A stretch of DNA of 64,000 nt from a virus. Lineage: Duplodnaviria; Caudoviricetes. The notes under the pieces were generated by a model, which saw nothing but the letters and a program-made list of their open reading frames with translations, searched no databases and had not been told where the DNA came from. This document shows positions 590 through 26,833 of this stretch, piece after piece. Both the position numbers and the translations under genes were made by a program. The stretch spans positions 36,984 through 100,983 of IMG/VR virus record IMGVR_UViG_3300032292_000698; one strand, given 5' to 3'. Numbering within the stretch: the first letter of the stretch is position 1; each line of letters opens with the position of its first letter.

Positions 590-590
590 T

Positions 591-2554: not shown

Positions 2555-2557
2555 TTT

Positions 2558-4913: not shown

Positions 4914-4916
4914 TTT

Positions 4917-6586: not shown

Positions 6587-6589
6587 TTT

Positions 6590-7195
6590 ATGTTTAGATC
6601 AGACGCATATCAAGATCAATTTGTATACAAACTTCTCAACCAAAAACGTCACGGATATTTCGTAGATATTGGAAGTTGTGGTGCAATCAACTCAAACAAC
6701 TCATACTTTTTCGAATCTCTTGGATGGCGAGGAATATGCGTTGAAATTGATAAAGGTTACGCACCAAGTTATTCGGAACGTAGGTGTACGTTTATAAACC
6801 AAAACGCACTTACAGTTGACTACACTAACGTTCTTGAAAATGATAATGCTCCATTGTTTATAGACTATCTCTCGGTTGATATTGATGAACTGAGCATTGA
6901 TGCCATTAAGTTATTGCCACACGATAAATACAAGTTTGGAGTGATTACAATAGAACACGATGGTTATATCTATGGCAATCGTTATAGGCAACCGCAACGT
7001 GAGTTTTTAAAGTCACTTGGTTATCATCTATTGGGTTCAGATGTACGTGTTCCTGATAGACATTTTAGATCTTTAAGCACTCTCAATCATTTGGATAACA
7101 ACGGATTTGAAGATTGGTGGGTTCATCCATCTTTGCAAAAGAATCATTATATGTTTAATCACATCTATCCTGAAGATTTAATTGCGCAACTATGA
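6590..7195 (+). CDS. FkbM-family SAM methyltransferase
   Basis: GYFVDIG, SNNSYFFE..GWRGICVE, IDYLSVDID, ITIEHD and EDWW. Confidence 0.85.
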   Translation: MFRSDAYQDQFVYKLLNQKRHGYFVDIGSCGAINSNNSYFFESLGWRGICVEIDKGYAPSYSERRCTFINQNALTVDYTNVLENDNAPLFIDYLSVDIDELSIDAIKLLPHDKYKFGVITIEHDGYIYGNRYRQPQREFLKSLGYHLLGSDVRVPDRHFRSLSTLNHLDNNGFEDWWVHPSLQKNHYMFNHIYPEDLIAQL

Positions 7196-8130
7196 CAGTC
7201 TTTCTGGTAAATCATAAAGTCAAAAATTGTGGAGTATACCAGTATGGAAAACGTGTTGCGTCTATTCTAACCAAGTCAAAAAACTTGTTGGTTCATTATC
7301 TCGAAATGGACGACAGCAACGATTTTCTAACACAAGTAAACATTCACAATCCATCTGTTATTGTTTACAATCATTTGACAGGAACAATGCCTTGGGTAGA
7401 TACAACTTTTGTTAATCAACTTCGTCAACGAGGAATTAAACAAGGAACTATCGTACACAACGTAGCATACTCCACATTTTTCGATTTTTATTTACATCAG
7501 GATCCAAATTACAACGTTCACCAAAACAATTACAAGTTGTTACGTCCATTGTTTGAATATAACAAACCTATCACAGTATCTCCCCACAAAATAAAGATTG
7601 GATCTTTTGGGTTTGGATTTGCATCAAAACAATATGAACAGTTGTGTGCGTGTGTACGTGATAACTTTTTACGAACAGACGTTCCCGTTGAATTGAGACT
7701 ACATCTGACGCATTCACATTTTTGTGAAAATTCAAGAGACATTGAAAGTATAAAATACAACGCATCAAGAATACTTAACAATCCAAATATCAACTTGGTA
7801 ATCACAACCGATTTTATCAGTGATGAAGACCTGTTGGATTTTCTGGCAGGCAATGATCTCAATATCTTCTTTTATCAAAAGTATAGTGGGTATAACGGTA
7901 TATCATCATCAATCGATTATGCGTTGTCGGTTAAACGTCCTATCGCAATATGTAGAAGCAATATGTTTTCACACATTTGGAATACAACACCGTCAATTTG
8001 TGTTGAAGATGTATCATTAAATGAAATCATCAATGTGGGGATTAGACCGTTGGAACAATATTACAATAGTTGGTCCCACGACAAATTTATTGAACTATTT
8101 GAAAATAACATTAAAGACGTTACAAAATGA
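7192..8130 (+). CDS. putative GT-B glycosyltransferase
   Basis: CGVYQYG, IGSFGFG..K, DLNIFFY and ISSSIDYALSVKRPIA. Confidence 0.65.
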   Translation: MTVFLVNHKVKNCGVYQYGKRVASILTKSKNLLVHYLEMDDSNDFLTQVNIHNPSVIVYNHLTGTMPWVDTTFVNQLRQRGIKQGTIVHNVAYSTFFDFYLHQDPNYNVHQNNYKLLRPLFEYNKPITVSPHKIKIGSFGFGFASKQYEQLCACVRDNFLRTDVPVELRLHLTHSHFCENSRDIESIKYNASRILNNPNINLVITTDFISDEDLLDFLAGNDLNIFFYQKYSGYNGISSSIDYALSVKRPIAICRSNMFSHIWNTTPSICVEDVSLNEIINVGIRPLEQYYNSWSHDKFIELFENNIKDVTK

Positions 8131-8876
8131 ACAAGCTCGGAGTATTGGTTACATGTTACAATGAAGTTTCAGCAGTAGAATATTCGTTAAGTATATTTAG
8201 ACAAATTTATCCAGATGTCAAAATCTATCTTACAACTGAAAGTCAAGCGGATTACAGTAGACTATTGAAACTAAACAATATCAGCATCAATCATGTTGCT
8301 GATACAATGTATTTTATACGTCACATCACTGATCAAAACTTCAGAGAACCACACTTTCAAAACAAAATGATCGTGGCTACCAATGCGTTCTTAAACAGAG
8401 TTGTACATGCTATTGAATATTGTCAAAGTGAATACTTGTTATTGATGGATCCAGATACATTGGTAAGAGGTCCACTTACCATTCCAGATGGTGTTAAATT
8501 GTTGGGTACACGTATCAATCAAGGATTGCCAACGGAGTTGAGAAACATTTTATCACAAATTCCGGGTGCTATTGATATTGATTGTTGGGGAGCAACACCT
8601 GCAATTATTCATAATCAAACGTTTTTGAAATCCTACAAATATGTAACAGAACAAGATCCTATGTTTTTGTCAAGAATAGCACAAACATTTTATGCTATTT
8701 TTGCACACGACGTGATTCTTCCAGTATTATTTGCGTTACAAGGAGAAAAGGAAACGTTTAATCCAGATATAATAGAGTGTCATCGGCAATGGTATTGGCA
8801 TATGACACAACATCCATTGGTGCATCAATTTAAATATTTATATGACAACAATCGTAACAGCCTTATACAACATTAA
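8127..8876 (+). CDS. GT2-like glycosyltransferase
   Basis: VLVTCYNE and YLLLMDPD (DxD), in operon context. Confidence 0.65.
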   Translation: MNKLGVLVTCYNEVSAVEYSLSIFRQIYPDVKIYLTTESQADYSRLLKLNNISINHVADTMYFIRHITDQNFREPHFQNKMIVATNAFLNRVVHAIEYCQSEYLLLMDPDTLVRGPLTIPDGVKLLGTRINQGLPTELRNILSQIPGAIDIDCWGATPAIIHNQTFLKSYKYVTEQDPMFLSRIAQTFYAIFAHDVILPVLFALQGEKETFNPDIIECHRQWYWHMTQHPLVHQFKYLYDNNRNSLIQH

Positions 8877-9591
8877 CCGGGAACGAGAAGGCGACGGAAG
8901 ACCTTTTCATGATTATTTGAAGTGGTTACCCGAAACTTTATCTTTATCATGCAACTATGTTATTTACACAGAAAGTGGCGTTGTTCCATACGTTCCAAAT
9001 CAACCAAACATTAAAGTAGTTGTAACTCCCCCTGAAGAAATACCATTATATCACAAACGAGGACACATTCAAAGCATTCTGAGTGACAGAACATATCTTT
9101 CACAGATTAAACATCCAACCAGAGTGGAATGTGTACTTCCAATGTATACCGTCATTCAGTATTCAAAATTTGAGTGGTTGAAACGTACCATCAAAGAAAA
9201 TCCATTTGGATCATCATACTTTTTCTGGATGGACGCTGGTTGTAGTAGATTCTTTGATGGACTATCTAAGTCATTTCCGAATCACAATAACCTTCCTCCA
9301 AAGTTTCTAATTCAGGGAAACGTGAATACCAACCGTATTCCTATAGATGAAAATTATAAGTGGATGTCAGATTGTGTTCTTGTAGGTACATTTTTTGGCG
9401 GACCAACTGAGTATGTAACAAAAGTGTCAGATTTGACTCTAAAGTTCTTACAAGAAGAAATGTTGGATAAGAACATGATCAATAATGAACAGATTGCACT
9501 TGCGTTTATATGTAAACGTGAACCGTCGTTATTCAATATTTATATAAAGTTGAACGGACAACATCTTCCGGTTTTAAAGATATTAGAATAA
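8842..9591 (+). CDS. HtrL/YibB (WlaTC)-family glycosyltransferase
   Basis: TTIVTALYNI, SKF, ENPFGSSYFFWMDAG, GTFFGG and NNEQ. Confidence 0.82.
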   Translation: MTTIVTALYNINREREGDGRPFHDYLKWLPETLSLSCNYVIYTESGVVPYVPNQPNIKVVVTPPEEIPLYHKRGHIQSILSDRTYLSQIKHPTRVECVLPMYTVIQYSKFEWLKRTIKENPFGSSYFFWMDAGCSRFFDGLSKSFPNHNNLPPKFLIQGNVNTNRIPIDENYKWMSDCVLVGTFFGGPTEYVTKVSDLTLKFLQEEMLDKNMINNEQIALAFICKREPSLFNIYIKLNGQHLPVLKILE

Positions 9592-9592
9592 T

Positions 9593-10222
9593 ATGAACAC
9601 CTCTTATTTTGGCGATCAAAACATTGACGAAACTATCAGAAATAGATATTTTCCAGACTTTTCATACAAAGGAACCATTGTAGAAGTGGGAGGTGCAACC
9701 CCAGAGTATCTTTCGATGTCTCGTCATTTCAAGTTGAACGGATGGAGAGCTATTGTGATTGAACCAAATCCTACGTTTTGTGAAGAACACCGTAAAATCG
9801 GCAATGAAATATATGAACTAGCGTGTTCAGACAAAGATGAAGATAACGTAGATTTTGTCGTTGTTCATGCTAATTCGGGAAAGGTTACAGATCATTCATT
9901 TTCTTCATTGAAAGTTAAAGATTCATATCGTCAAATTGCAAACAACTGGGTAGACAGGTTAAAACATACAATGATCAAGGTCAATGTTAGAAAACTTGAT
10001 ACTATAATAAAAGATTACCAAATTGAAAACATAGATATATTGTCAGTGGATGTCGAAGGTTGGGAGTTGGAAGTCATGAAAGGATTGTCTCTAATTAATC
10101 CCAAAGTCGTCATCTTGGAAAATCTATTTAAAGAAGAATCATATCGTCAATACATGATCGAACGCGGTTATAAATTTATCGAAAAGATCTGGGATAACGA
10201 TATCTACGAAAAAGAGTTATGA
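9593..10222 (+). CDS. FkbM-family SAM methyltransferase
   Basis: VEVGG, GWRAIVIEPNP, IDILSVDVEGWELEVMKG and PKVVILE. Confidence 0.88.
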   Translation: MNTSYFGDQNIDETIRNRYFPDFSYKGTIVEVGGATPEYLSMSRHFKLNGWRAIVIEPNPTFCEEHRKIGNEIYELACSDKDEDNVDFVVVHANSGKVTDHSFSSLKVKDSYRQIANNWVDRLKHTMIKVNVRKLDTIIKDYQIENIDILSVDVEGWELEVMKGLSLINPKVVILENLFKEESYRQYMIERGYKFIEKIWDNDIYEKEL

Positions 10223-11169
10223 AAATTTCAATCATCGGACCAGGCATCATGCCAATTCCACCCAAAGGTTGGGGTGCTGTAGAATCTCTCATTTGGGACT
10301 ATAACATCGAACTCAAGAATTTAGGCCACGATGTACAAATCGTCAATACACAGAACCAACAAGAAATTGTCAATCAAGTCAATTCTTTTAACCCCGATTT
10401 TGTTCATCTACAATATGATGATTTGTACAATGTGATGCCTTATATTAACTGTAAACACAAGGCTGCAACAACACATTACGGTTATCTTGAACAACCACAT
10501 CGTTATGGCGGATACGGTAGAGTGTTTTCAGCATTCCTTCAAGGCGATTTCAACATCATTTGTTTATCAGAAGGAATCAAAAAAGTATATAAGCACTACG
10601 GCGTCAATGAAAATAGACTATATGTGGTTGGCAATGGTGCAAGAAAAGATCTGTTTAGATACACTGATGCTGCCCCAACCAAACAGGACAAAAGCGTATA
10701 TCTAGCAAAAATCACTGACAGAAAACGTCAATGGTTGTATCAAAATATCAATGATATCGATTTCGTTGGCAACAAAGATGACATTAGATTCAATTTTAAT
10801 CGAAGTAACTATCTTGGTGAGTGGGATAAAGACACGTTGTATCACAACCTCACAGATTATGCCAATTTGGTTTTGTTGAGTGATGGTGAAGCAGATCCAC
10901 TTGTTACCAAAGAAGCTCTTATTGCGGGTCTTGGTGTTGTTGTTTCAGAGTGTTCTACTGCAAACTTGGATTTATCCAAGCCGTTTATTAACGTGATACC
11001 CGAAGACAAAATCTATGATTTGAACTTTGTTCGTGGAGTTATCGAAACAAACAAACAAGAATCGTTGAAACGTCGTAATGAGATTAGAGAGTACGGAATT
11101 CAAAACTTTGCATGGGAAAACGTAGTGCAAAAATACATGAATGTTGTAAATCAAATTATTTCAAAATAA
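10219..11169 (+). CDS. GT4 glycosyltransferase
   Basis: IPPKGWGAVE, RKRQ and SDGEADPLVTKEALIAG (E-x7-E). Confidence 0.85.
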   Translation: MKISIIGPGIMPIPPKGWGAVESLIWDYNIELKNLGHDVQIVNTQNQQEIVNQVNSFNPDFVHLQYDDLYNVMPYINCKHKAATTHYGYLEQPHRYGGYGRVFSAFLQGDFNIICLSEGIKKVYKHYGVNENRLYVVGNGARKDLFRYTDAAPTKQDKSVYLAKITDRKRQWLYQNINDIDFVGNKDDIRFNFNRSNYLGEWDKDTLYHNLTDYANLVLLSDGEADPLVTKEALIAGLGVVVSECSTANLDLSKPFINVIPEDKIYDLNFVRGVIETNKQESLKRRNEIREYGIQNFAWENVVQKYMNVVNQIISK

Positions 11170-11172
11170 GTT

Positions 11173-12261
11173 ATGTACGATTATGTTATTGTTGGCAGCG
11201 GCATGTTTGGATCAGTTTGTGCACACGAACTAACTAAAAAAGGAAACAAATGTTTGGTTTTGGAAAAACGTAACCATATTGGTGGCAATTGTTATACTGA
11301 AAATAAAGATGGTATCAACATTCACAAATATGGTGCTCATATTTTCCACACATCCAATAAAGAAATTTGGGATTACATTAATCAGTTCGCCCAATTCAAC
11401 AACTACGTTAACAGAGTTAAGGTAAACTACAAAGATGTCTTATACTCATTTCCTATTAACTTGTTTACACTACATCAACTTTATGGTGTAACTACTCCTG
11501 AACAAGCTAAACAAAAGTTGGAAGAAGTACGTGTAAAGAATGACAATCCAAACAATTTGGAAGAGTGGATAATTTCACAGGTTGGTGTAGACATTTATGT
11601 CAAATTCATCAAAGGATACACCACCAAACAATGGGGACGACATCCTATGGATCTACCCGCATCCATAATTAAACGTCTTCCAATTCGATTCAATCACGAC
11701 GATAACTACTACAACGATCCCTATCAAGGCATTCCTATCGGTGGATATACCCAGATATTTGAAAAAATGTTGAATGGTATTGAAGTCAAACTCAACACCG
11801 ACTATTTGGCAAATCGAAATGAATTTAATAAACTGGCGACAAAAAAAGTTATTTACACTGGTCCAATTGATGCTTTTTACAATTACGCATATGGTCAGTT
11901 AAACTATCGAAGTCTGAAATTCGAAACCGAACGTGTAGAAGTTCCAGATTATCAAGGAAACGCAGTAATCAATTATACTGAAACGTATATTCCCTACACT
12001 CGTATTTTGGAACACAAACATTTTGACTACGTTGATACTCCATATACCTACATTACAAAAGAATATCCAAGAGAATATGGAGAAGGTATGGAATCATATT
12101 ATCCAATTAACGATAAAGTAAACACTCCTACCTACGACAAATATAAAGCATTGACAGACTCAGAGACCAAATATATCTTTGGCGGTAGATTGGCTGAATA
12201 TCGTTATTACGACATGCATCAAGTCATCGGATCTGCTCTTCACACCTGTAAAAAACTATGA
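11173..12261 (+). CDS. glf: UDP-galactopyranose mutase
   Basis: VGSGMFG FAD loop, HIGGNCY, HKYGAHIFHT, YQGIP, RILEHKHF and GRLAEYRYYDM. Confidence 0.97.
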   Translation: MYDYVIVGSGMFGSVCAHELTKKGNKCLVLEKRNHIGGNCYTENKDGINIHKYGAHIFHTSNKEIWDYINQFAQFNNYVNRVKVNYKDVLYSFPINLFTLHQLYGVTTPEQAKQKLEEVRVKNDNPNNLEEWIISQVGVDIYVKFIKGYTTKQWGRHPMDLPASIIKRLPIRFNHDDNYYNDPYQGIPIGGYTQIFEKMLNGIEVKLNTDYLANRNEFNKLATKKVIYTGPIDAFYNYAYGQLNYRSLKFETERVEVPDYQGNAVINYTETYIPYTRILEHKHFDYVDTPYTYITKEYPREYGEGMESYYPINDKVNTPTYDKYKALTDSETKYIFGGRLAEYRYYDMHQVIGSALHTCKKL

Positions 12262-13163
12262 AAGTACAAATTGTTACACATCTGTTGCCTCATGAACTTG
12301 ACGAATTTGAACGTCAATTGACTGTATTGAGTCAAGAAATCATCGGAGAAACTGAAGTCACTTTGGATGTAACATTAAACCTCAATACGGTTGACTGGGA
12401 TAAAACTCAGATTCCAAAAAACTTCTTCGTGGATAAGTTTGAGGCATTAACTCAGTACGTCACTAAAACATCATGGGCAAGAAACCATATTTTTGACGTT
12501 GATGATCATGGAACGTGTCGAGGAATCAACGACAAACGTCGTAACAGCATTAGAAAGTATGCAGATCAAGTGGACGCATTCATTTACCTTGATTCTGATT
12601 TGGTGTTTCCGTCTGGCATTTTAGCATATTCAATTCATTGTGCACAACAAATCAAGAATGACTATTATATTGTTTCTCCTCAGATAACCAAAATCTGGGA
12701 TCAAACGTGGGATCATTTGGTCAACCATCAATTTGTCAACAACAAATACGGCAGTGAAAAGATAATCAATCCGTATTTTGAAGTCAACCGTAAATCATAC
12801 GTCGATAGTGTTAATCTAATCAAATGTAATCCTATCAAGTTTGGTGGTGGTTGGTTCAATATGATCAGTTCTAATCTTCTTAAGTTCACCGACATTCCTG
12901 ATGTACTCGGACCATATGGTGTTGACGACACCTTCGTCATGTTTGCTGCTCAAATAATGAAACTTAATGGCGTAAAACTAGAACAATATTTGATGGAGAA
13001 CATCATCGTCGCTGAAAACTATTCTTTGAGACACAATCCGTACAAAAACTATGTGACTTACTTTGAAGATCGAAACAACTTCAAGAGTAAGGCCGAGGCA
13101 GCGTTGGGCGATTGCCTAAGAGACTTTGTTAACAAAAACCAATACTCATTCAAACAACTATGA
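12258..13163 (+). CDS. GT-A/GT2-like glycosyltransferase
   Basis: FIYLDSD (DxD), KFGGGWF and YGVDDTF. Confidence 0.65.
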   Translation: MKVQIVTHLLPHELDEFERQLTVLSQEIIGETEVTLDVTLNLNTVDWDKTQIPKNFFVDKFEALTQYVTKTSWARNHIFDVDDHGTCRGINDKRRNSIRKYADQVDAFIYLDSDLVFPSGILAYSIHCAQQIKNDYYIVSPQITKIWDQTWDHLVNHQFVNNKYGSEKIINPYFEVNRKSYVDSVNLIKCNPIKFGGGWFNMISSNLLKFTDIPDVLGPYGVDDTFVMFAAQIMKLNGVKLEQYLMENIIVAENYSLRHNPYKNYVTYFEDRNNFKSKAEAALGDCLRDFVNKNQYSFKQL

Positions 13164-13504
13164 TAGACCTTTTAAACACGATTTGCGCAGGAGTCATCAT
13201 GTTGATTGTATGGTTTCATACTGAAGCATTTATTGAATACAGCAAGTTGTTTGGACTTGCCAGATTATTCAAAATTGATGAATTTGAAAAGGCATACGAC
13301 AACGACTTTACACTAGAGTATTTGTTGTGGATAAAATCGACACATCCAAACTTTTTTACACGACTGATAAACTGTCCATGGTGTATTGGTTTTTGGCTTA
13401 CAGTATTAAATTGTTTATTTTTCTCTACAATTTATCTATTTCCAGTAATTTACGTGTTGACAATTGTTATATATCTAATAATCGTTAACAAATTTTTGAA
13501 GTAA
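13160..13504 (+). CDS. small membrane protein with CPWC motif (DUF1360-like)
   Basis: Hydrophobic N- and C-terminal segments, with LINCPWCIGFW. Confidence 0.6.
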   Translation: MIDLLNTICAGVIMLIVWFHTEAFIEYSKLFGLARLFKIDEFEKAYDNDFTLEYLLWIKSTHPNFFTRLINCPWCIGFWLTVLNCLFFSTIYLFPVIYVLTIVIYLIIVNKFLK

Positions 13505-13507
13505 ATT

Positions 13508-13804
13508 ATGACCTTGGTCCAGAATTTCAGTGAGTTTTACAACATACTCAAAACGCATGCAAATATTCCCAACAGTGTTCCTGCATTAAGAGAATATGTG
13601 TTGTTGGTAGAATCTTTCAAATCCACATGCAGTTGTAACCGAGGTGGTGAAAAACAAAGACTAAAAAACGAATGTGAAAACCGTTATCGACTACTTGTAA
13701 CAAACGAAGTTGCTAACAACATCAATTTGTTTCATAGTTCGTTGGGTGCCAATCACATTCGTTTTGTTTATAACAACGCTCTTATCAAAGAATTTAGTCT
13801 CTAA
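13508..13804 (+). CDS. hypothetical protein
   Basis: 98 aa ORF tightly packed at the end of the operon, with a CSC motif. Its stop overlaps the convergent gene. Confidence 0.65.
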
Positions 13805-15128
13805 ACACGTAACCATCACGTGTTAGTATAATTCTTGGATCTTCTCTCAAAGCATTTCTATAAGGGGTAAACGATATTTGTCGTCCCCAATTCAAATAAT
13901 CCAAAATGTCCCGTTTGGAAACATAGTGCTTTTCTTTGATGTAATTCACAATATCGGTATAAGCCTTACTGCGTTTTACTGTTTCATATTCATCCAGAAT
14001 ATTCCAATTGTTAAACCACGAATTAACAGTGTTTGCCCACTTCAAATTGTTCGTGATCTTCTTCATTAGTGCCAAATTGTCAGTCTTAAAGGACTTGTTA
14101 TCCAAAGCAGCTTCCAACTTGTTCAAAAACTCAGCCTCATTTTCATAAAACAATGGATAATCATGTCCAACCATTTCAGGATAACACAACTTATTGGGAA
14201 GTAAATATGGCAACCCACGACTCAATCCATCGGTAACTGAAATAGACCAAGCAGAATAGGTCTGGAAGTATCCTACACCCACATGCATCTGTTTAATGAA
14301 GTCATAATAACGATCACGATCCAGTTCAACTTTCTTGATATATGGACGACACTCTTCTGCCAAAGTAACGTAGACAGTAAAGTCCTGACGCTTCTCATAC
14401 AGTTTGTCCATAACCTTTAGAAATTCATTCCAACCAGTATATTCGTTGGGACGATGATTGAAGAAAATAGACTTGTTGATCAATCCAATACCTTCAAAAT
14501 CAGTATCAGTTCCCAAATAATGAGGTTGAATGATTTGATTGAGCTTCTTGACCACCGAGATATTGAAATGTTCAGCAGCACGTTCCAATACCAGAGTCTT
14601 TAGCCACTGTGAATTGACTCCACATTGTTCCATTTCAAGCGTACCAAGAACGTTCATATCAAACACATTCTTAGCGTATCCGGTATTTTCTTTCACCTCA
14701 TACCAATGACAATATCCAACAATCTTTGGCTTGATACCAGCATTGTTGAAAATGTAGTTAGATAGTTGAAGAGTTTGTTCTGGTAGATGTGAGTAGATTA
14801 CATCATAATCTTTGTTATATAGATCAAGTATATTTGCAACTTTATCCACATCAAAATGAACTCGCATTGAATTCGGATAAGTAGGGAACTGATAGTGTAA
14901 CTGTTCTGTATTTTCATACTGTAGACTTTTTACGTGGCGTGGTGTAACAATAGACCAAAAAATATCATCACGTACTTCATTTAAACTACGAATGATATTG
15001 GCAAGAACCACCACATAAGAGTCCTTTTCAAGGTTATCCGAGTAAGTAATGTTTGGCCAAACTAAAACTTTGTGTTTATATTCCTTGTATTGATTTTCCC
15101 AAACCGGTTCGAAAAATTTATTTATCAT
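13794..15128 (-). CDS. GT-B glycosyltransferase with putative C-terminal winged-helix domain
   Basis: [16 protein letters not shown] and [16 protein letters not shown] (GT4-like C-domain). The extra ~60 aa tail [28 protein letters not shown]...GYVF is HTH/wing-like. Confidence 0.75.
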
Positions 15129-16084
15129 AGATAACTAACTATAGTGTCATTGAGAGCATCAGTAAAGTTATAATATTTGATCTTACCAAACTTTTGTTCG
15201 TAATCAAACGTTTCAATAGAATATCTGAAATCATGCCCTTTTCTGTCATCAACATGTTCAAACCATTCCCAATCAAGTCTCTGATTCGTAATGTTTTCGT
15301 ATGTAGCCGCAATAAGATACATCAACTGTATGTTTGATATTTCATTATTTCCGCCAATCAAATATTGATTACCTATATCACCACGTTCCAATACATCCCA
15401 AACGCAGTTAACGTGATCCTTTACATAAATCCAATCACGAACATTTTCTCCATTTCCATAGATCGGAATTGGTTCTTTATTCTTCAACTTACGAATGCAA
15501 GTTGGAATGAACTTCTCAACATGTTGTCGAGGACCAAAGTTATTGCTACAATTAGTGACAATTGCAGGTAGTTTGTAGGTCTTGAAGTAGCTACGGACCA
15601 ACAGGTCACTTGCAGCCTTTGTGGCTGCATATGGACTGTTTGGCTTGTAAGGCGTATCAATGTTGAACGATGTTTCCTTTGCATTCAATGAACCATACAC
15701 TTCATCGGTTGAAATGTGAATAAACTTTTCAACCTTACCATAATCGTAGATAGCTTTAATCAAATTATAGGTACCCATAATGTTGGTCATAACAAACGGA
15801 TCTGGACTATAAATTGAATTGTCTACGTGAGTTTCTGCTGCAAAATTAACAACGTGGGTGATTTCAAACTTGTTCAATGTTTGCCACAATATGACACCAT
15901 CATTGATATCAGCGACATAATGCTTATACCTTGGATCCGTATTGAATCGTAGATCCTTGTTAGCCGCATATGTCAACTTATCAACATTAATGATGACTTT
16001 AACATCGGGATCACTGAGCAACTTTTCTATAAAGTGTGAACCAATAAATCCACAACCACCTGTAACCATTATATTTTTACTCAT
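15125..16084 (-). CDS. rmlB: dTDP-glucose 4,6-dehydratase
   Basis: [41 protein letters not shown] and DRKGHDFRY. Confidence 0.97.
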
Positions 16085-17340
16085 ACAATTTCAAATTTTG
16101 GACACGGAACAATAAAATGACCACCCGCCATCAAATATGGTGCTTCACGACGTTTGAATTCATCAATAAAATGCCAAGGCAAAATCAAAAGATAATCAGG
16201 ATTGGCCTTTCTCATTTCAGCTTCAGAATAAATTGGAATGTCGGTTCCAACAGTCCTCAATCCAAACTTATATGGACTACGTTCTGCTGCACCATCAATC
16301 AAAGATTTGTCCAGTCCAAAATACTGCAATAGAGTATTACCCTTGGTAGAAGCACCATATACCCAAATCTTCTTACCACGTTCCTTCTCTTGTTTAATGA
16401 AACTATAAGTCTTCAACTTCAACTCTTGAAGTTTGTGATAGAACTCCATGTAAAACTCAATAGTGTTTGCACCAATCTTGTTTTCATACTCCAAGATAGA
16501 GTTTACACGATATTGAGCAACATCACGATATGGTGCAGTGGCGAAAGAAGTGACCTTTGCGATATCTTTCTGTAGATAGACTCTGAATGATCCGCCATTG
16601 ACATCGTTCAACTCACAATCAACAATCTTGAACTTTGCCTTTTCAGCAACGTGCTTGAAGGAATGTAGAGAATAGTACATCAAGTGTTCATGACAAATGT
16701 TGTCGAATGCCATCTGTTGAATCATCAATGGAGTGTAACTCATTTGAACCACAAACATTCCTTCATCGTTCAATACTTGATACACTTCATTCAAGAACGC
16801 AACGGGGTCAGGCAGGTCATAGAACATCGCAATACACGTAATTACGTCACACTTACGTCCCTTGAAAATACTACGGTCAAATGCGTCCTTTGAGAAGTAG
16901 TCCTGAATCACTTGATCAGCGAACTTGACACTCTCCTTGGTGTATGAATCATCAGCAGGATCAATTCCCAACCTAGCATATGGTGTAGGAACATAACTCA
17001 ACAACGTTCCATCATTACATGCGATATCAAGCCACAGAGGTGTGTCAGACGGTGTATGTACATTTACACAACTATCCACCACGTTCTTCAGTTGGTTACG
17101 CATAGTTTGATTGGTACCGGAACGATACCAATATTGACCGTACATTTTGCTTGGGTCAGCACCTTGTTCCAATTGAACCAACTTTGATGTGGGTGAATAC
17201 ATCAACTTCATTTCAGACTTGTAGTCATTAGAAGGTTGCTTTTTGACAAAATTTGAAATAAACAAATTACCCAAGGTGAATAGTGGCACCAAAGGATCAT
17301 TTGCTACCCGACAAACAGAAACTTTTTCAGTATATTTCAT
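16081..17340 (-). CDS. NDP-hexose C-methyltransferase
   Basis: LDIACNDGTLL, FDNICHEHLMYY, NGGSFRV, YGASTKGNTLL and PDYLLILPWHF (TylC3/TcaB9-type C3-methyltransferase). Start taken at the ATG overlapping the upstream stop. Confidence 0.9.
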   Translation of the reverse strand: MKYTEKVSVCRVANDPLVPLFTLGNLFISNFVKKQPSNDYKSEMKLMYSPTSKLVQLEQGADPSKMYGQYWYRSGTNQTMRNQLKNVVDSCVNVHTPSDTPLWLDIACNDGTLLSYVPTPYARLGIDPADDSYTKESVKFADQVIQDYFSKDAFDRSIFKGRKCDVITCIAMFYDLPDPVAFLNEVYQVLNDEGMFVVQMSYTPLMIQQMAFDNICHEHLMYYSLHSFKHVAEKAKFKIVDCELNDVNGGSFRVYLQKDIAKVTSFATAPYRDVAQYRVNSILEYENKIGANTIEFYMEFYHKLQELKLKTYSFIKQEKERGKKIWVYGASTKGNTLLQYFGLDKSLIDGAAERSPYKFGLRTVGTDIPIYSEAEMRKANPDYLLILPWHFIDEFKRREAPYLMAGGHFIVPCPKFEIV

Positions 17341-18206
17341 TGTGATTTCCAATTATTTAAACAGTAATCCAGAGCTTCATCCACAGTTCTCATTTTGATT
17401 CCGGTTGACAACAATCGTTGATTGCTCATAACACAGTTAGAACGTGGAGTTTTTGCGGCTGTGGTATAAAACGATTCTTCGTTATCAAAAAATTCAAAGA
17501 TCTTATCTTTAGCGATAGTCTTTTGCATCATTTCAATAACTTGTTTTGTGGTTACAAAACCAGTATTAGTAACATTGTAAATACCATATGGTACTTGACG
17601 AGTAATAGTTTCAATACAAGCACTAACAAACTCTTGTTTATTAGATATAGAATTTTCTGCATCCAATAGTTTTTTATAATTCAACATTTTGGACAGATAA
17701 TTTCTAGGATTATCTACATCTTCAAATGGTATTCTCAATCTCCAGATATAGTGTTCAGGAGCATTTTTGATGATAATGTTCTCAGCCATAGCTTTAGTTC
17801 CACTGTAAAAGCTACAGTTGTTTTGTTCAAAACTAAAGTTAGGCGGATCCAATTCGGTAAACGGAGAACCATCACTACGTCGTCCTGTATAAATACATCC
17901 ACTGGATACATGTGCAAACGTAATGTTATTGTTTCCACAAAACTGTGACACCATTTGTGGTAATACCACGTTTCCATAAATGGTATTATGTTTGTCAAAT
18001 TCACACGCATCCACGTTTGGCTTACCTGTATACCCAGCACAATTGACAATGGTGGTCAACTTTAACGTTTTGTGCAATAGTTCCAACTGTGAATATGTAA
18101 TTTCCTTGGAAGGAACAAGACATGGACGCACGACATGTCCTTTTTGGAATAGTTGTTTGTAAAACTCTTTACCGATATAACCGGTAGAACCTAATAGTAA
18201 AATCAT
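17337..18206 (-). CDS. NDP-4-keto-6-deoxyhexose reductase / epimerase-reductase (RmlD / NRS-ER type SDR)
   Basis: LLGSTGYIG, NCAGYTGKPNVDACE, SSGCIY, FYSGTK (YxxxK) and WRLRIP. Confidence 0.88.
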   Translation of the reverse strand: MILLLGSTGYIGKEFYKQLFQKGHVVRPCLVPSKEITYSQLELLHKTLKLTTIVNCAGYTGKPNVDACEFDKHNTIYGNVVLPQMVSQFCGNNNITFAHVSSGCIYTGRRSDGSPFTELDPPNFSFEQNNCSFYSGTKAMAENIIIKNAPEHYIWRLRIPFEDVDNPRNYLSKMLNYKKLLDAENSISNKQEFVSACIETITRQVPYGIYNVTNTGFVTTKQVIEMMQKTIAKDKIFEFFDNEESFYTTAAKTPRSNCVMSNQRLLSTGIKMRTVDEALDYCLNNWKSQ

Positions 18207-18212
18207 AACCGA

Positions 18213-19064
18213 TCATATATATGATTGGATAGACTCCAAATAATTTCTATATTCCGACTTTGGTGTCTTTTCCATTAATTTAATAAACTGTTTTTTATCA
18301 ATAAACCCCTGATTTAAACAGTCTTCTTCAATACATGCAATCTTACATCCTTGACGTTCCTGAACGGTTTGTATGTAATTACTTGCCTGAGATAAAGTTG
18401 TTGGTGATCCCGCATCTAACCACACAGTTCCTTTTGGCATTTTTATCACATTCAAATTACCCTCTTCCATATATCTACGGTTGATATCTGTGATTTCATA
18501 TTCACCACGCTTGGAAGGTTTCAATACTCTAGCATATTCAATCACGTTCTTGTCGTAGAAATATAGGCCAGGAATCGCATATTTGCTTTTAGGCATCGTT
18601 GGCTTCTCTTCAATAGACAACGCCTTACCGTTGGAATCAAAATCAACTACACCATATTCTTGAGGGTTGTTGACTTTGTAAGCAAAAACAACTGCACCAG
18701 TGAAATCAACCTTCATACGGTTGAATCCGTGAAACACGTTGTCACCTAAAATCAAACAAACACTATCATTGCCGATAAAGTCTTCAGCGATCAAAAAAGA
18801 TTGTGCAATACCATCTGGTTTGGGTTGTACTTTATAGGTAAAATTCAACCCCAAACGTTCACCATCACCAAATAACTTTTGATACAACGGAAGAAAATCA
18901 TATGATGATATGATGCAAATGTCTTTGATTCCGCAAGAAATCAATGTTGATAGTGGATAATAAATCATCGGCTTATCAAATATTGGCAACAATTGTTTGT
19001 TAACAACTGTTGTCAACGGATATAACCTAGATCCAGTTCCACCAGATAAAATGATTCCTTTCAT
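18213..19064 (-). CDS. rmlA: glucose-1-phosphate thymidylyltransferase
   Basis: GGTGSRLYPLT, KQLLPIFDKPMIYYP, LGDN, EEKP, RGEYEITD and WLDAG. Confidence 0.97.
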   Translation of the reverse strand: MKGIILSGGTGSRLYPLTTVVNKQLLPIFDKPMIYYPLSTLISCGIKDICIISSYDFLPLYQKLFGDGERLGLNFTYKVQPKPDGIAQSFLIAEDFIGNDSVCLILGDNVFHGFNRMKVDFTGAVVFAYKVNNPQEYGVVDFDSNGKALSIEEKPTMPKSKYAIPGLYFYDKNVIEYARVLKPSKRGEYEITDINRRYMEEGNLNVIKMPKGTVWLDAGSPTTLSQASNYIQTVQERQGCKIACIEEDCLNQGFIDKKQFIKLMEKTPKSEYRNYLESIQSYI

Positions 19065-19720
19065 AGGTTTGCACGTTTGTAAATTTCTCTTACTGCGTCA
19101 TTCAAATACTCTTCTTTGAGAATTTCTTCGTAAGTTTTACCTTCGGTGCTAACGTGTTTCCATTCCAAACAATAATCAGCAGCAGCCTTCACCTTGGGGT
19201 CATTCCACCGTTCATGATCGTTTGCTGGTTCGATATAGACTTTGACGTTCTTGTCGTATTCTGGCCGTACTCTGCGTTCATGTGGAGGAAATCCATACGT
19301 GTACTTGGAAACGTGAATCAAGGAGCCATTCAATTCGTTCTGAATCCAGTGTACTTCATCCTTGGGATAGAAGTTATATCGGATATCAGTGATGAAGATG
19401 ATGTCAGAATCATCCGATTCCATCTGACGTTGTAACTTTTCAGTCCAATATCTTCCTTCGGTTTGTTTGCGTTTTACGTCACCATACCACACAAGCATAT
19501 CTCGAAAGACTTTCTTGTCTTCTGAGTTTTCAGTGAACACATCCAGTCCCAACTTATCTTGAATGAATTCTTTACAGTCATTCTTGAGATTGTAAGCCAA
19601 AGCGTATGAACTACACTTGTAGCCATATTCTTCAGTCAAAATCTTTTTTGAAATGTCACAAAATAAGTTCTTTCCAGATCGTGCAACTCCAGAGATACCA
19701 ATATAACGTTTAGTTTTCAT
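19061..19720 (-). CDS. deoxynucleoside monophosphate kinase (T4 gp1-like)
   Basis: IGISGVARSGKN P-loop, R...YGD..R, YW and ITDIRY..E. Confidence 0.8.
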   Translation of the reverse strand: MKTKRYIGISGVARSGKNLFCDISKKILTEEYGYKCSSYALAYNLKNDCKEFIQDKLGLDVFTENSEDKKVFRDMLVWYGDVKRKQTEGRYWTEKLQRQMESDDSDIIFITDIRYNFYPKDEVHWIQNELNGSLIHVSKYTYGFPPHERRVRPEYDKNVKVYIEPANDHERWNDPKVKAAADYCLEWKHVSTEGKTYEEILKEEYLNDAVREIYKRANL

Positions 19721-20228
19721 TATCCATTAACTTTTCTACTTCTTTTTCTGTCAAACCGTATGCCTTGCATATATTGATCATCTCATTCAAACCAGCGTCT
19801 GTCTGAATTAAAATTTCAGCATATTCTTCAGCTTCAGATGACGAACATTCAAACCATCGTGCCAGTAGTTGATAAAATTCATCTGGAAATCTATTCTTAC
19901 CAGCTTTGATGTATTTGTTAAACTGATTGGTTTTAGGAATCGCTGATATGAGCAACGTATAAAAGTTCTTGGATGGTATAGTATCCTGATACTTTGAGAT
20001 ATACGACAATGTATCTAGGTTGGCTCTATCCATTGATAGAAACTTCAATATCATTACATGAGCAAAACTCTTTTTGTCAGCTTCGCTTAACGTATCAAAG
20101 TATTTTGGATTTTGTACACCTTTGATTTGATTCACATGATCGAACAATCCAACTGCTTTTACAGCAGGTTCATTCGATTCTTCTGAGACCTTTTTTGACT
20201 TCTTGGGAGATGATTTTTTTGTCGCCAT
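19710..20228 (-). CDS. clamp loader small subunit (T4 gp62-like)
   Basis: LFDHVNQI, MILKFLSM, FYTLL...IPK..F.KYIK and EAEEY pattern typical of gp62 homologues. Confidence 0.7.
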   Translation of the reverse strand: MATKKSSPKKSKKVSEESNEPAVKAVGLFDHVNQIKGVQNPKYFDTLSEADKKSFAHVMILKFLSMDRANLDTLSYISKYQDTIPSKNFYTLLISAIPKTNQFNKYIKAGKNRFPDEFYQLLARWFECSSSEAEEYAEILIQTDAGLNEMINICKAYGLTEKEVEKLMDNEN

Positions 20229-20481
20229 GATTTTTGTCTACCACCATTTTTAGTGATTTGATATCAGACGATAACACCTTCTGGTTGGTTAGTAAAGTTG
20301 TTATAGTCCGATTCATGTCGGTGGTATTTTCATCAACTATTTGTTTGTTATTGAGTAATGCCTTGTGAACCAGATATAAGTAAAATACCACTAGGACCAA
20401 TCCCAGTGGTATCGTAATCGGAAACTTATAGGTTAACAAAGACAATACTACCATTATGGCTAGTAGAATCTTGTGTATCAT
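20170..20481 (-). CDS. membrane protein with two N-terminal TM segments and a coiled tail
   Basis: Two hydrophobic N-terminal stretches. ATG is directly after the upstream stop. Confidence 0.6.
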   Translation of the reverse strand: MIHKILLAIMVVLSLLTYKFPITIPLGLVLVVFYLYLVHKALLNNKQIVDENTTDMNRTITTLLTNQKVLSSDIKSLKMVVDKNHGDKKIISQEVKKGLRRIE

Positions 20482-22132: not shown

Positions 22133-22756
22133 TCAGTAATATACAGAAAGTTCAGAACGTTTCCATTCAACTCCGTCGTAAATGTAAAGATAATTATCAC
22201 ACACTAACACTTGTCCAAAAGTACCTGCGCCCGTAGGAGGACATGGAGTTTCACTGTCAACAATTAGGGTTGTAACGGTTAACGTGCCAACTATAATGTC
22301 TCCCAAGTCGTATGGCGTTGGCGTTGGAGTTGGTGTTACATACGGAGTTGGAGTAGGAAAAATATATGTTACTATCGGAGTATTACATGGCAAAGCCGGT
22401 GTAATTTCACAAATTGTACAAATTTCACTTTGTAAACCTCTGTTTTGCCACTTTGTACCGGGACTTTCGTCCATTTTAACCCAAGTAACATTTTTATTGA
22501 TACCGCCACTCAAAGCTGGATTTGAACACAATCTTTGAATGCTGTTATTTACATAGTTGATTGTGGTAAATGAAGATTCATTCGGATATTTGTATGAAAA
22601 TATATTACCACGTTTTTGTAAAATGGTTCCCACCGGTCCAGTAAACAGGCTATTTGGGGAATTATCTACATACGTTGACGAACTGTACAATTTCTGTACA
22701 GTTATCAATCGATCAATAAATGTAGTAAAGCGGTTATATGAAATAAAGTCTAGCAC
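22133..22756 (-). CDS. putative virion decoration/fibre protein with PT-rich linker
   Basis: FPTPTPYVTPTPTPTPY linker and C-terminal GTFGQVLVCDNYLYIYDGVEWKR. TATTTATA motif upstream. Confidence 0.6.
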   Translation of the reverse strand: MLDFISYNRFTTFIDRLITVQKLYSSSTYVDNSPNSLFTGPVGTILQKRGNIFSYKYPNESSFTTINYVNNSIQRLCSNPALSGGINKNVTWVKMDESPGTKWQNRGLQSEICTICEITPALPCNTPIVTYIFPTPTPYVTPTPTPTPYDLGDIIVGTLTVTTLIVDSETPCPPTGAGTFGQVLVCDNYLYIYDGVEWKRSELSVYY

Positions 22757-22792: not shown

Positions 22793-23974
22793 TCACCGTC
22801 CAACTTCTTTAAAAAAGTGTTCTTTCGCCGTGACATACGACATATCAATCATGCTATTGTAGTACAAAACATCGTTTTTCAAATTGTTTTCACTCTTCAA
22901 CTTCAAATATCTATCCTTGGCTTTGGGTCTCCACCAGTCTAAAATAGCCTTGGTATCGTCCTTAAACAATGGTTTCATCACCAATTTATCCTCAGAAATC
23001 TTGTTTTGCAAGAATTCCTTGGTATTTTCATAAAAACAACTGTAATAAACACCCCGTTCATACCCATGAACGTATTCTTGAGTCTTTAATTTCAATTCTT
23101 GAAAGATCATACTAATAACTCTTTGTTTTGCACCAGTAACAGGACCAGAAATATTGTCCTTTTGAGTCATTTTCTTGTCGTATTCTCCCTTTTTGTGTTC
23201 CTTAATCCAGTCATGCCATGCTTCATACACAATATCGTCTGGCTTAATAGGAATCTTACCAGCACTGGTTCCACACTTATGCCACCACTTCAAACTGTTA
23301 TACATACTGTAACTACCATAAAGACTTGTAGTAGTCATTCCTACCAAGGTTTGATCATACAGTTTCTTCCAAACATCACGTACTACTGATGATGTCACCA
23401 AACAAGCAACCAATTTTCCACCCAAAAAGTTAAATCCAAAGGGTTGCGTACTCATAATACAACTTCCGATTGCACTATGTACCAACTTACGATCATCCAA
23501 CTTATTCTCAGCAGTCCATCCTACGTACTTGTCTCGGTCATTGATCGTAATCACGTCACTTGATACAGAAACCGCTCCTAGGTACCGTGGGCGTTCTTCA
23601 TTGCCATCTGTAATCAGAAACTTCAAAAACCTTCCCGGTGTCTGACTAAATTCCATGGTATGGCAAAACAACCGCAACATCAACCAATCCAATTCTTGTT
23701 GTTCGGTAGTTACATGAACCATGGTAGGATTCATTTCATCCAACTGTTTCAATGTAAGAGCTTCATCATTAATATCCTTGGGTTTCCAAATTTTGCATTT
23801 TACGTCATCTGATCTACTAGCGTAGCTCTGATATTGTTTGACTTCTTCCCACTTTTTATAGAATGTAGCTTCTTCCACACTCATGGACTTTAACGCATTC
23901 ATGTTATCTATGAACTTCTTTTTTTCAAGTTCATAGTTAAACTCAATGCCTTCCATATCAAAAAAATTAGTCAT
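22793..23974 (-). CDS. DUF4338 / DruA-like protein
   Basis: TPGR.LKFL, RDKYVGW, QPFGFNFLGGKLVA, TTTSLYG.YSMYN and HGYERGVY resemble DUF4338 (DruA) family motifs. Confidence 0.7.
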   Translation of the reverse strand: MTNFFDMEGIEFNYELEKKKFIDNMNALKSMSVEEATFYKKWEEVKQYQSYASRSDDVKCKIWKPKDINDEALTLKQLDEMNPTMVHVTTEQQELDWLMLRLFCHTMEFSQTPGRFLKFLITDGNEERPRYLGAVSVSSDVITINDRDKYVGWTAENKLDDRKLVHSAIGSCIMSTQPFGFNFLGGKLVACLVTSSVVRDVWKKLYDQTLVGMTTTSLYGSYSMYNSLKWWHKCGTSAGKIPIKPDDIVYEAWHDWIKEHKKGEYDKKMTQKDNISGPVTGAKQRVISMIFQELKLKTQEYVHGYERGVYYSCFYENTKEFLQNKISEDKLVMKPLFKDDTKAILDWWRPKAKDRYLKLKSENNLKNDVLYYNSMIDMSYVTAKEHFFKEVGR

Positions 23975-24737: not shown

Positions 24738-26786
24738 TTAGATTTTACTTGTACTGCTCAAAAACATATCATTCAAAGTCTTAGCCACACTCACAATGTT
24801 GGTCACATCAATATAACGAGCATCTTGACCATACATCGTTTTGAAATGTGGCTGTGACTGTGCATTTTCGTTTCGGTTTCCAATGTAATACGATAGAACG
24901 GTATATCCCTTCTTTCGGATTTCATTAACCTGTTTACGGGTATGATTCGCTCCATTCTGGTAACTGTAGTGAATGTATGCACCGTTCTTATGATAACTGT
25001 AGCAAGGTTCACCATCAGAAAAGTTCACAAAGTAACAATCCTCGTTTTCTTCCTTATCACGCAACATATCCATGATAGCTTCAAAACACAATCCCTCAGG
25101 AGTGCTTCCATTAGCAACCAAATACGGAAACATATTACGAACCTTGGCAAATGAGTCTTTCGTAGAATCATACACCATAGCAATATACGGAAGTGAATTA
25201 CCCCTACTAGTAGCACGAATACTCACACTCACTTTCAGATTGTTAATCATTGAAGCAGCCTTACAAATGGCGGTTGCAGCAGTAATAGTCTTTCGCCACT
25301 TATCACCAACCATACTAGAACTAGCATCAATACTGAGATGAAGATAAGCATGCTTGTATTGATCAACCTCGTTACGATAAAACACGTTCTCATTAGAGAT
25401 ACCAAGTTCAGCCAATACACGTCGATCAATCTTACCCATTGACTTTCTCATGTACTTAGTAACATTCACTTCACTACGAACACTCAGACGTTTACCCAAC
25501 AGATTGCCAAGTTGAATACCACGATTCACTGCGGCAAGAGTATCAGGATCAGGATTTCCGGCCAAATCAAAACGTGAACACGGAAACTGATCAGACATAA
25601 GAAGTTCCTTGGTAAGGTTCTTCACAACCACACACTCAACACCAGAAGTGATCGGAGAACTGTCGTCCATCTTGGTTCCAACATTGACAATCGTCACTCC
25701 AGCCTTTTCAAGATCACCCAAAATCTTGGCTTCACGAGCAGTAACCTTACGTTTCTTGATTTGACCAAGAATAAACGCCTTTTGTTTGTTCAAAGCCTTA
25801 TCAATCAAATTACGTTTGGATTTAGAAACGCCAGACTCTTCGTTTTTCTTTTTGGTAGTCTCTTCATTTGACTGTGCAGCACTAGAATTGCTACAGGTAG
25901 ATTCAACACCACCGAAAACGTTACTTGCACTGGAACCAGACACATCAGAACCACTATCAGAACCACTATCAGTGCCATCAACTATCACAATGATACTTGA
26001 ACCAGATTGTTCTGAACCAGCATTTTCTTCTTTCTGTTGATCTTGTGTGTCAACATTGGCATAAATGATCTTACACACTTCTACTGCCACGTCAAAACGA
26101 TCTTTGGTAGTGGTAAGACGACCAATATTCTTGAGATCAAGAACATTAGCAATATCACGAAAACCAGGCAAAGCATCCAGATCGGTGTTACGATTGACGA
26201 TATTGATCAAACGAGCATCATAAGATTGAATAGTCTTACTACGATACAGTTCGGACTTCAACATCGAATCAACGTGTTTACTGTGGAAATACTTTTCATA
26301 CAGAGCCAGATAATATCCACGATAACCGGGAGCGGTTTGATAAACATAGTTATCAATAAACCGATCCTCGACAACGTTGTGAACATTCTTCAAGAATTCC
26401 ACCACTTCCATCTTGGAAAATCCCTTGGGTCCAGCGATATCGTACAACTCACGGGGAACATTCTGCCAAATATCTGTGACAACACGGAAATCAGTCAAGG
26501 CAACATGTGATCCCTCATGGAGGGCCAGACCCACCATCGTATCAAAATCTTCAGGATTCTCAATGTCAGCGGACAAATAGACCGTTTTACCATCGGTCAT
26601 ATTTGCATCAGCGTCGTTGTAAATAACAGGAATAGACTTTCCAGTAAGGATGTTAACAAAATTGGAAATAGCTCTCCGGGTCATATTCATACGAATAAGA
26701 CGAGCAGTATCATCCTGACTTTCAAACTCTTCAAAGTCGAAGTCATCCATCCAAAAATCAGAATGTATTGTAGAGTTGTTCTTCAT
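24738..26786 (-). CDS. VWA-domain protein with N-terminal HExxH metallopeptidase-like domain (CobT/NorD-like)
   Basis: LALHEGSH and NVVEDRFI, a Ser/Asp-rich linker, MIDAS IDASSSM, GSTPEG and FSDGEP. Confidence 0.88.
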   Translation of the reverse strand: MKNNSTIHSDFWMDDFDFEEFESQDDTARLIRMNMTRRAISNFVNILTGKSIPVIYNDADANMTDGKTVYLSADIENPEDFDTMVGLALHEGSHVALTDFRVVTDIWQNVPRELYDIAGPKGFSKMEVVEFLKNVHNVVEDRFIDNYVYQTAPGYRGYYLALYEKYFHSKHVDSMLKSELYRSKTIQSYDARLINIVNRNTDLDALPGFRDIANVLDLKNIGRLTTTKDRFDVAVEVCKIIYANVDTQDQQKEENAGSEQSGSSIIVIVDGTDSGSDSGSDVSGSSASNVFGGVESTCSNSSAAQSNEETTKKKNEESGVSKSKRNLIDKALNKQKAFILGQIKKRKVTAREAKILGDLEKAGVTIVNVGTKMDDSSPITSGVECVVVKNLTKELLMSDQFPCSRFDLAGNPDPDTLAAVNRGIQLGNLLGKRLSVRSEVNVTKYMRKSMGKIDRRVLAELGISNENVFYRNEVDQYKHAYLHLSIDASSSMVGDKWRKTITAATAICKAASMINNLKVSVSIRATSRGNSLPYIAMVYDSTKDSFAKVRNMFPYLVANGSTPEGLCFEAIMDMLRDKEENEDCYFVNFSDGEPCYSYHKNGAYIHYSYQNGANHTRKQVNEIRKKGYTVLSYYIGNRNENAQSQPHFKTMYGQDARYIDVTNIVSVAKTLNDMFLSSTSKI

Positions 26787-26795
26787 AGTGTTAAC

Positions 26796-26824
26796 ATCCT
26801 ACTGGATTGTTATAACTTTGTCAA
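26796..26824 (-). promoter_or_regulatory. sigma70-like promoter (near-leaderless)
   Basis: TTGACA-17-TAGGAT, 9 nt before the ATG. Confidence 0.75.
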
Positions 26825-26833
26825 CCACTTTTT

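Follow-up and report, generated by a model that had tools for sequence, protein, structure and literature searches.

Does the glycosyltransferase that lies among the replication genes of an uncultured T4-like phage act on nucleic acid, and is the sugar that it transfers made by the genes beside it? We address this question in a 64,000-nt stretch of IMG/VR record IMGVR_UViG_3300032292_000698 (hereafter the window), in which 65 open reading frames (ORFs) were called and 42 of them, about two thirds, were scanned against Pfam. Here a minus-strand run carries a clamp-loader subunit, a deoxynucleoside monophosphate (dNMP) kinase, a deoxysugar cassette (RmlA, a reductase, a C-methyltransferase and RmlB) and, last, a 444-amino-acid (aa) glycosyltransferase with a winged helix, which we call GT-wH (Table 1). 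A first-pass annotation of this DNA had proposed that GT-wH transfers the C-methylated 6-deoxyhexose of the cassette to phage DNA. We arrive, with a confidence slightly better than even, at another reading: GT-wH would be a core, nucleic-acid-directed glycosyltransferase tied to a DruA-like gene further upstream, while the cassette would be an add-on that serves a neighbouring glycan island.

Modelling shows the GT-wH product to be a divergent GT4-like glycosyltransferase of the GT-B fold joined to a basic winged helix. Its AlphaFold2 (AF2) model, built from a 20-sequence alignment, reached a pLDDT (predicted local distance difference test) score of 88 and a predicted template modelling (pTM) score of 0.85, and residues 16-383 of this model superpose on retaining GT4 enzymes, with the two Rossmann-like domains and the interdomain cleft of a GT-B enzyme. 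A structure search with VIA gave Z 28.1 against 7qsg (root-mean-square deviation (rmsd) 3.3 over 338 residues), about 26 against BshA, 25.5 against MshA and 24.5 against PimA, the last also being recovered by Foldseek at E 3e-11. The DNA arabinosyltransferase 9ir0 of phage HY126 scored Z 21.3, below the top-ranked generic GT4 enzymes, and T4 AGT and BGT were absent among the 50 matches listed by Foldseek and the 50 listed by VIA. The protein belongs to no Pfam, PHROG or NCBIfam family and matched no Pfam glycosyltransferase family at E <= 0.01; Glycos_transf_1 (PF00534) gave no above-threshold match in it and is carried by distant relatives only (P0249 and one Atlas cluster). Profile searches of PDB sequences with GT-wH, its tail and the DruA-like protein returned chance matches only, none of them a glycosyltransferase, and a weak match to phi29 p16.7 (E 0.007) fell below the cut-off. 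A 442-aa GT1-like protein at 579-1907, compared as a candidate paralogue of GT-wH, is not one. Among predicted structures in BFVD, two glycosyltransferases of about 490-500 aa from Arthrobacter phages BeatusComedenti and Kitkat (A0A649VWF8 and A0A140G6R4) align to the full-length GT-wH model with a TM score of 0.75-0.78 by query, and may have in common with it an architecture of GT-B plus C-terminal domain.

The tail of GT-wH was examined as a domain of its own. Folded alone, the last 65 residues gave a pLDDT of 88.9 and a secondary structure of three helices (H9-21, H26-32 and H42-50) followed by a beta-hairpin wing (E54-56 and E61-63). Upon searching 48,161 chains with VIA, without the Foldseek prefilter, we found the best 50 matches all to be winged helices (Z 6.5-7.6), headed by 7bzh, a protein of Sulfolobus that binds DNA (Z 7.6, with an rmsd of 1.9 over 57 residues), and including TFIIE-beta, MarR, ArsR, MecI, Z-alpha and FoxP as well as cullin WHB, ScpB and ESCRT-II. 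As the domain has only 60 residues, these Z scores are middling, and the winged-helix call therefore rests on the uniformity of the matches; Foldseek E values were 0.05 or weaker, an Atlas feature search with the tail gave uninformative scores of at most 0.80, and sub-threshold TFIIE_beta Pfam matches occurred in 6 of 23 family tails. The tail of the window protein has an isoelectric point of 9.75, against 5.63 for the body, the mean net charge of the tail across the family is +6.6, and Y423, R424, N425 and R428 on its third helix are invariant or nearly so. The model describes a basic, winged-helix targeting domain of nucleic-acid type, which may bind DNA, as the charge and the helix-3 residues indirectly suggest. 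Both structural claims of the first-pass annotation, a GT-B enzyme and a C-terminal basic segment of about 60 aa folding as a winged helix, are borne out by these models.

In an uncultured aquatic lineage of T4-like myophages, GT-wH belongs to the core genes and is strongly conserved. Over 518 metagenomic proteins of about 445 aa are related to it at >50% identity, IMG/VR has the gene in 469 contigs, and the alignments of 380 cluster representatives still include the tail at identities down to 23-30%. Across 83 aligned enzymes, 108 positions are near-invariant, among them all motif residues of the C-terminal (donor-side) domain, and the stretch 13794-17800 recurs near-identically in runs of at least 8 freshwater (lake metagenome) studies other than the possible source. 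By contrast with its hundreds of viral contigs, this is an unannotated and virus-restricted enzyme family: among 185,579 prokaryotic species genomes, only two short contigs of metagenome-assembled genomes carry it, and full-length structural look-alikes were confined to viral Atlas clusters, one with PF00534 in 68% of its members. In 50,697 phage records, megablast of the region and tblastn of GT-wH returned nothing, nor did the remote homologues P0249 and P0171 find a match there, and the gene is missing from the nearest record, G001 (29.8 kb); in the literature, we found no description of the family as a winged-helix glycosyltransferase acting on DNA.

The cassette does not share this conservation. 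Across the 83 GT-wH loci that we compared, it is confined to the clade nearest to the window (GT identity >=71%; L004 and L006-L012) and is missing from 75, and even within this clade the methyltransferase is missing from L006 and L009. In the clade at 60% identity, which also keeps the dNMP kinase upstream of GT-wH, a 254-aa DruA-domain gene fills the slot of the cassette between these two genes, and in the more distant clades neither the cassette nor the 254-aa gene stands at the GT-wH locus. Three large relative records, including one that is 79% complete, have no RmlA, and in another it lies 27 kb away. Hence the RmlA/NRS-ER/3-C-methyltransferase/RmlB cassette is a clade-specific accessory insertion. 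Only two fixed differences, T130A and N131G, both in the N-terminal domain, separate the GT-wH enzymes of cassette-bearing phages from those of cassette-free ones. As the donor site stays unchanged while the cassette comes and goes, GT-wH is unlikely to depend on the cassette product, and the proposal that it transfers the C-methyl 6-deoxyhexose is not supported by this comparison.

The cassette enzymes themselves point to a rhamnose-type sugar. The best solved relatives of the reductase are the Arabidopsis 3,5-epimerase/4-reductase 4qqr (E 9e-30) and the UDP-L-rhamnose synthase 7jid; because an NRS/ER-like enzyme of this kind does both the 3,5-epimerisation and the 4-reduction, RmlC is missing, and the RmlABCD set is represented by RmlA, RmlB and this one enzyme in place of RmlC and RmlD. 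The methyltransferase is closest among solved structures to the D-mycarose 3-C-methyltransferase 4rv9 (E 7e-38) and TcaB9, and has a single Cys in its N-terminal segment rather than a four-Cys zinc site. From these sequences we infer dTDP-L-rhamnose as the product, carrying a 3-C-methyl group in phages that have the methyltransferase. The probable user is the convergent, opposite-strand glycan island of about a dozen soluble transferases, whose gene content differs among close relatives, and the gain and loss of the cassette fit such a diversifying island beside it. The cassette would supply its sugar to this hypervariable island, the enzymes of which most likely assemble a glycan on a cytoplasmic acceptor, for example a virion protein. 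Keeping GT-wH apart from the rhamnose cassette thus avoids a wrong assignment as a "C-methyl-rhamnosyl DNA base", and directs attention for the sugar to a virion or protein glycan island.

We found the DruA-like gene to be the sole neighbour that is kept with GT-wH across all clades. In the window its product matches PF14236 with 83.2 bits (cut-off 27) over profile positions 46-296 of 297; its Atlas neighbours, with scores of 0.98-0.99, all carry PF14236, and mean per-column identity in the family is 60%. A gene of this type, encoding about 395 aa, stands upstream of GT-wH on the same strand in 42 of the 51 loci with enough flank, abutting it in 19; other loci have variable genes inserted in between. 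It occupies position -1 relative to GT-wH in 25 loci, -2 in 15 and -3 in 6, and is always co-directional. In the window, about 7.7 kb of other genes separate the two, a distance of 7.6-8.9 kb in the clade of the window. Around the pair the flanks are rearranged: in the largest clade they hold baseplate genes, another clade has PolB, dUTPase and clamp loader there, and two more have glycan islands.

Further features of the pair were seen in passing. An N-terminal N-x-FF-[DE] peptide begins both GT-wH (MINKFFEP, 15101-15128) and the DruA-like protein (MTNFFDME, 23948-23974), and these two are the only products of the 65 window ORFs with a peptide of FF[DE] type in their first 14 residues; judged by sequence, it may be a common docking peptide. 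It is kept by 30 of 38 DruA-like proteins and by 7 of 8 of the short DruA-like type, whereas just 19 of 74 GT-wH proteins have it. In the marine clade, the DruA-like gene and GT-wH are often separated by an inserted, variable large gene of 500-690 aa (e.g., L024:7912-9864; ~15 loci), to which the Pfam scan assigned no family. Adjoining the DruA-like gene of the window, at 24738-27775, a 682-aa protein and a MoxR/CobS-like AAA protein resemble the DUF4338/peptidase/CobS-AAA block of the cultured pelagiphages Mosig and HTVC008M.

If GT-wH is a core enzyme of this kind, it would use a donor that is common to all hosts, such as a UDP-hexose, as phages without the cassette show no change in its donor-side domain. 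Through the winged helix it would be brought to nucleic acid (probably phage DNA fresh from replication, or a protein bound to DNA), where it would act in one pathway with the DruA-like protein. DNA itself as the acceptor is plausible, unproven, and in our estimate falls somewhat short of an even chance. Should GT-wH act on DNA, the modification route would not start from a thymidylate-synthase-like hydroxylase, and the enigmatic DruA domain would gain a testable biochemical partner.

How the two proteins might cooperate is suggested by Mom. The DUF4338 domain has been described as a GNAT domain (PMC10853773), and Mom of phage Mu (PF25680), itself a GNAT, modifies N6 of adenine in double-stranded DNA in a Gly-tRNA-dependent way (PMC13219725). 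In distant relatives of the window phage, Mom (E 1.6e-42), a DNA N6/N4 methylase, DruA, GT-wH, PolB, dUTPase and the clamp loader stand in a row, and 4 of 5 large relative records contain Mom-family genes, with up to three per record. The pair might hypermodify DNA after replication in two steps, without the need for a hydroxymethyl- or hydroxy-pyrimidine. First, an acyl or aminoacyl handle would be put on a base by the DruA-like enzyme, in the way that Mom modifies adenine at N6; the winged-helix glycosyltransferase would then glycosylate this handle. We regard this scheme as unlikely. To our knowledge, no momylation pathway uses a glycosyltransferase. If the scheme is true, abundant phages of fresh water and the sea would carry a glycosylated DNA base of a new class. 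Mom-family genes are frequent and sometimes multi-copy in the lineage (L083:2677-3480; three each in L028 and G008), and distant clades often have them no more than a few genes from the DruA/GT-wH pair; in the window, no Mom gene was found.

Several observations weigh against a nucleic-acid-directed GT-wH that works with the DruA-like protein and apart from the cassette. The cassette runs in the direction of GT-wH and is coupled to it by an overlap, which makes joint expression likely and a functional connection possible. All 83 loci come from related phages, and the adjacency of the DruA-like gene may therefore partly be inherited gene order. Cultured Kyanoviridae (pelagiphages and cyanophages) carry DruA-like genes unaccompanied, without GT-wH, indicating that a DruA-like enzyme can work alone. 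A profile comparison with hhalign found no similarity between the DruA-like and Mom families. Winged helices mediate protein contacts too, as those of cullin WHB, ScpB and ESCRT-II among the tail matches attest. Against a DNA acceptor in particular, neither a hydroxymethylase-type thymidylate synthase (TS) homologue nor a 5-hydroxycytosine (5hoC) synthase was found in the relatives. Their TS homologue retains both the catalytic Cys146 and Asn177, the residue that specifies dUMP, and matches E. coli ThyA best, and relatives without ThyA (G006 and G008) carry ThyX, the two never occurring in one record; such mutual replacement would be expected of an ordinary thymidylate synthase, which the TS homologue resembles. 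No hydroxymethylase or TET gene is visible among the Pfam-scanned ORFs of the window, in agreement with the first-pass annotation, and a TET_JBP search in the relatives gave no match, but its positive control gave no match either. With a ThyA-like TS homologue and ThyX alternating with it, the classical 5-hydroxymethyl- or 5-hydroxy-pyrimidine route to DNA glycosylation is not supported. The ThyA of several relatives (L087:1498-2682 on the minus strand, G002-G005, G007 and G011) is about 394 aa long and carries two insertions, of ~100 and ~40 residues, compared with E. coli ThyA.

Other explanations of GT-wH have to be weighed against the same body of evidence. That it moves the 3-C-methyl-6-deoxyhexose of the cassette from dTDP to phage DNA, as a new hypermodification, is very improbable: 75 of the 83 relatives do without the cassette while their GT-wH differs by only two fixed residues, the methyltransferase is dispensable within the clade (L006 and L009), and a base-hydroxylating enzyme was not found in relatives, whereas on its side stand the overlap-coupled, single-strand arrangement of cassette and GT-wH next to the dNMP kinase, a winged helix that is real and basic, and the precedent of phage nucleotide-sugar synthesis feeding DNA glycosylation, with UDP-arabinose and 5hoC in RB69, DLP3 and HY126 (PMC13326640). 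A minority possibility with more to commend it is that GT-wH glycosylates a protein of the phage replisome, the virion or the host, with the winged helix as a module for protein docking or regulation in place of a clamp for a DNA substrate. Among solved folds, those closest to GT-wH have small molecules, lipids or glycans rather than DNA as substrates, protein-binding winged helices are among the tail matches, and in two clades GT-wH borders a large glycan island of soluble transferases; however, the largest clade has no adjacent glycan island, baseplate or PolB genes following instead, the tail is strongly basic with an invariant Y, R, N and R on its third helix, and the conserved company consists of DruA, Mom, a DNA methylase and replication genes.

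A role in counter-defence, in which GT-wH would glycosylate a nucleotide-derived signal or a host defence component rather than phage DNA, appears quite improbable. It would make sense of the full-length remote homologues (26-27% identity) found in a bacterial defence island and beside an ADP-ribosylglycohydrolase, and of a partner that has the same domain as the Druantia type I protein DruA; yet it builds on three remote contexts only, and explains neither the winged helix nor the very high conservation of GT-wH. A Druantia type I system is not what surrounds the DruA-like gene, as DruB-E, including the DruE helicase, were not beside it in the window or in the relatives. One 26%-identical bacterial homologue of GT-wH (L100:7001-8473) is flanked by a CHAT protease and a metallophosphatase on one side and by a DUF499/DUF1156-methylase/SNF2-helicase defence cassette on the other. 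The 394-aa bacterial neighbour of homologue P0175 was checked as a candidate DruA-like protein and is not DruA-like.

The genomic setting of GT-wH was largely as first described. All seven genes of the minus-strand run are where the first-pass annotation had placed them, adjacent genes overlapping by 4-16 bases or being separated by 6-base gaps; the clamp loader and the dNMP kinase, both matched by PHROG profiles, confirm its location in a replication and nucleotide module; and the run converges on the plus-strand glycosyltransferase operon while remaining separate from it, the end of GT-wH (13794) overlapping the end of the convergent gene (13804) by 11 bases. The methyltransferase gene likely starts at the ATG at 17340. 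A DNA contig from an independent freshwater study has a gene order identical to that of the window over 12000-20396. Together with the dNMP kinase, a dUTPase-like gene at 2-589 provides the nucleotide enzymes expected of T4-type DNA glycosylation, and the window is otherwise that of a T4-like myophage, with ribonucleotide reductase, a DnaB-type helicase, UvsX, gp32, a baseplate hub and a 1102-aa tail sheath. A scan for promoters and terminators gave a signal no higher than shuffled expectation. Contigs from RNA libraries of 3 studies include pieces of the GT-wH, methyltransferase and DruA genes, which does not by itself prove transcription. Elsewhere in the window, positions 22313-22342, inside a 207-aa ORF (22133-22756), are length-variable, a freshwater DNA contig from another study lacking 24 bases there in five small deletions, and in the tail/structural module at 58884-60977 a 697-aa protein has a glycosyltransferase-like N-terminal segment (phrog_33732 and phrog_2170).

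Table 1. Features of the GT-wH locus and its surroundings, with positions in the window.
Feature	Position	Strand	Evidence
Glycan island of soluble transferases	579-13804	+	GT2, GT11, GT7C-like, GT6, HtrL, FkbM, GT4, UDP-galactopyranose mutase
GT-wH, 444-aa glycosyltransferase with winged helix	13794-15128	-	fold; without family match
Basic winged-helix domain of GT-wH (predicted), residues ~385-444	13797-13976	-	isolated-domain fold and structural matches
GT-B core of GT-wH (predicted), GT4-like, residues ~17-383	13980-15080	-	Foldseek and VIA structural matches
RmlB, dTDP-glucose 4,6-dehydratase	15125-16084	-	PF16363 E 2.5e-68; TIGR01181 357 bits, cut-off 365 narrowly missed
NDP-hexose 3-C-methyltransferase (TylC3/TcaB9 type)	16081-17352	-	PF08484 E 4e-44
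RmlD-type short-chain dehydrogenase/reductase (SDR), read as NRS/ER-like bifunctional 3,5-epimerase/4-reductase	17337-18206	-	PF04321 E 6e-22
RmlA, glucose-1-phosphate thymidylyltransferase	18213-19064	-	TIGR01207 388.6 bits, cut-off 360.65 exceeded
dNMP kinase (T4 gp1-like)	19061-19720	-	phrog_139 E 4e-12
Clamp-loader small subunit (gp62-like)	19710-20228	-	phrog_225 E 4e-11
DruA/DUF4338-domain protein, 393 aa	22793-23974	-	PF14236 E 2.4e-23

Compared with known systems, the locus combines familiar parts in a different way. The cassette resembles RmlABCD, the NRS/ER synthases of plants and giant viruses and the TylC3/TcaB9 pathways in having RmlA, RmlB, one epimerase/reductase and a sugar 3-C-methyltransferase, and differs from them in having no RmlC, RmlD or 2-deoxygenation genes and a methyltransferase without zinc-binding cysteines. 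The DruA-like protein, unlike Mom, belongs to a family without profile similarity to the Mom proteins of the relatives and comes from a window without a Mom gene, yet it is like Mom of phage Mu in that its DUF4338 domain is described as GNAT (PMC10853773), and Mom genes accompany the DruA/GT-wH pair in distant relatives. T4 AGT and BGT and the 5hoC arabinosyltransferases of HY126 and RB69 (9ir0; PMC13326640) rely on a hydroxylase homologous to TS, a counterpart of which was not found here, and have no winged helix; like GT-wH, they are soluble GT-B enzymes encoded among early or nucleotide genes with a dNMP kinase. With the retaining GT4 enzymes PimA, MshA, BshA and the methylmannose-polysaccharide mannosyltransferase 7qsg, GT-wH shares the two-Rossmann GT-B fold (Z 24-28), while its EX7E signature is reduced to S292-x7-D300 in our reading of one alignment and no Pfam glycosyltransferase family matches it; to this fold the virus-restricted enzyme adds a winged helix.

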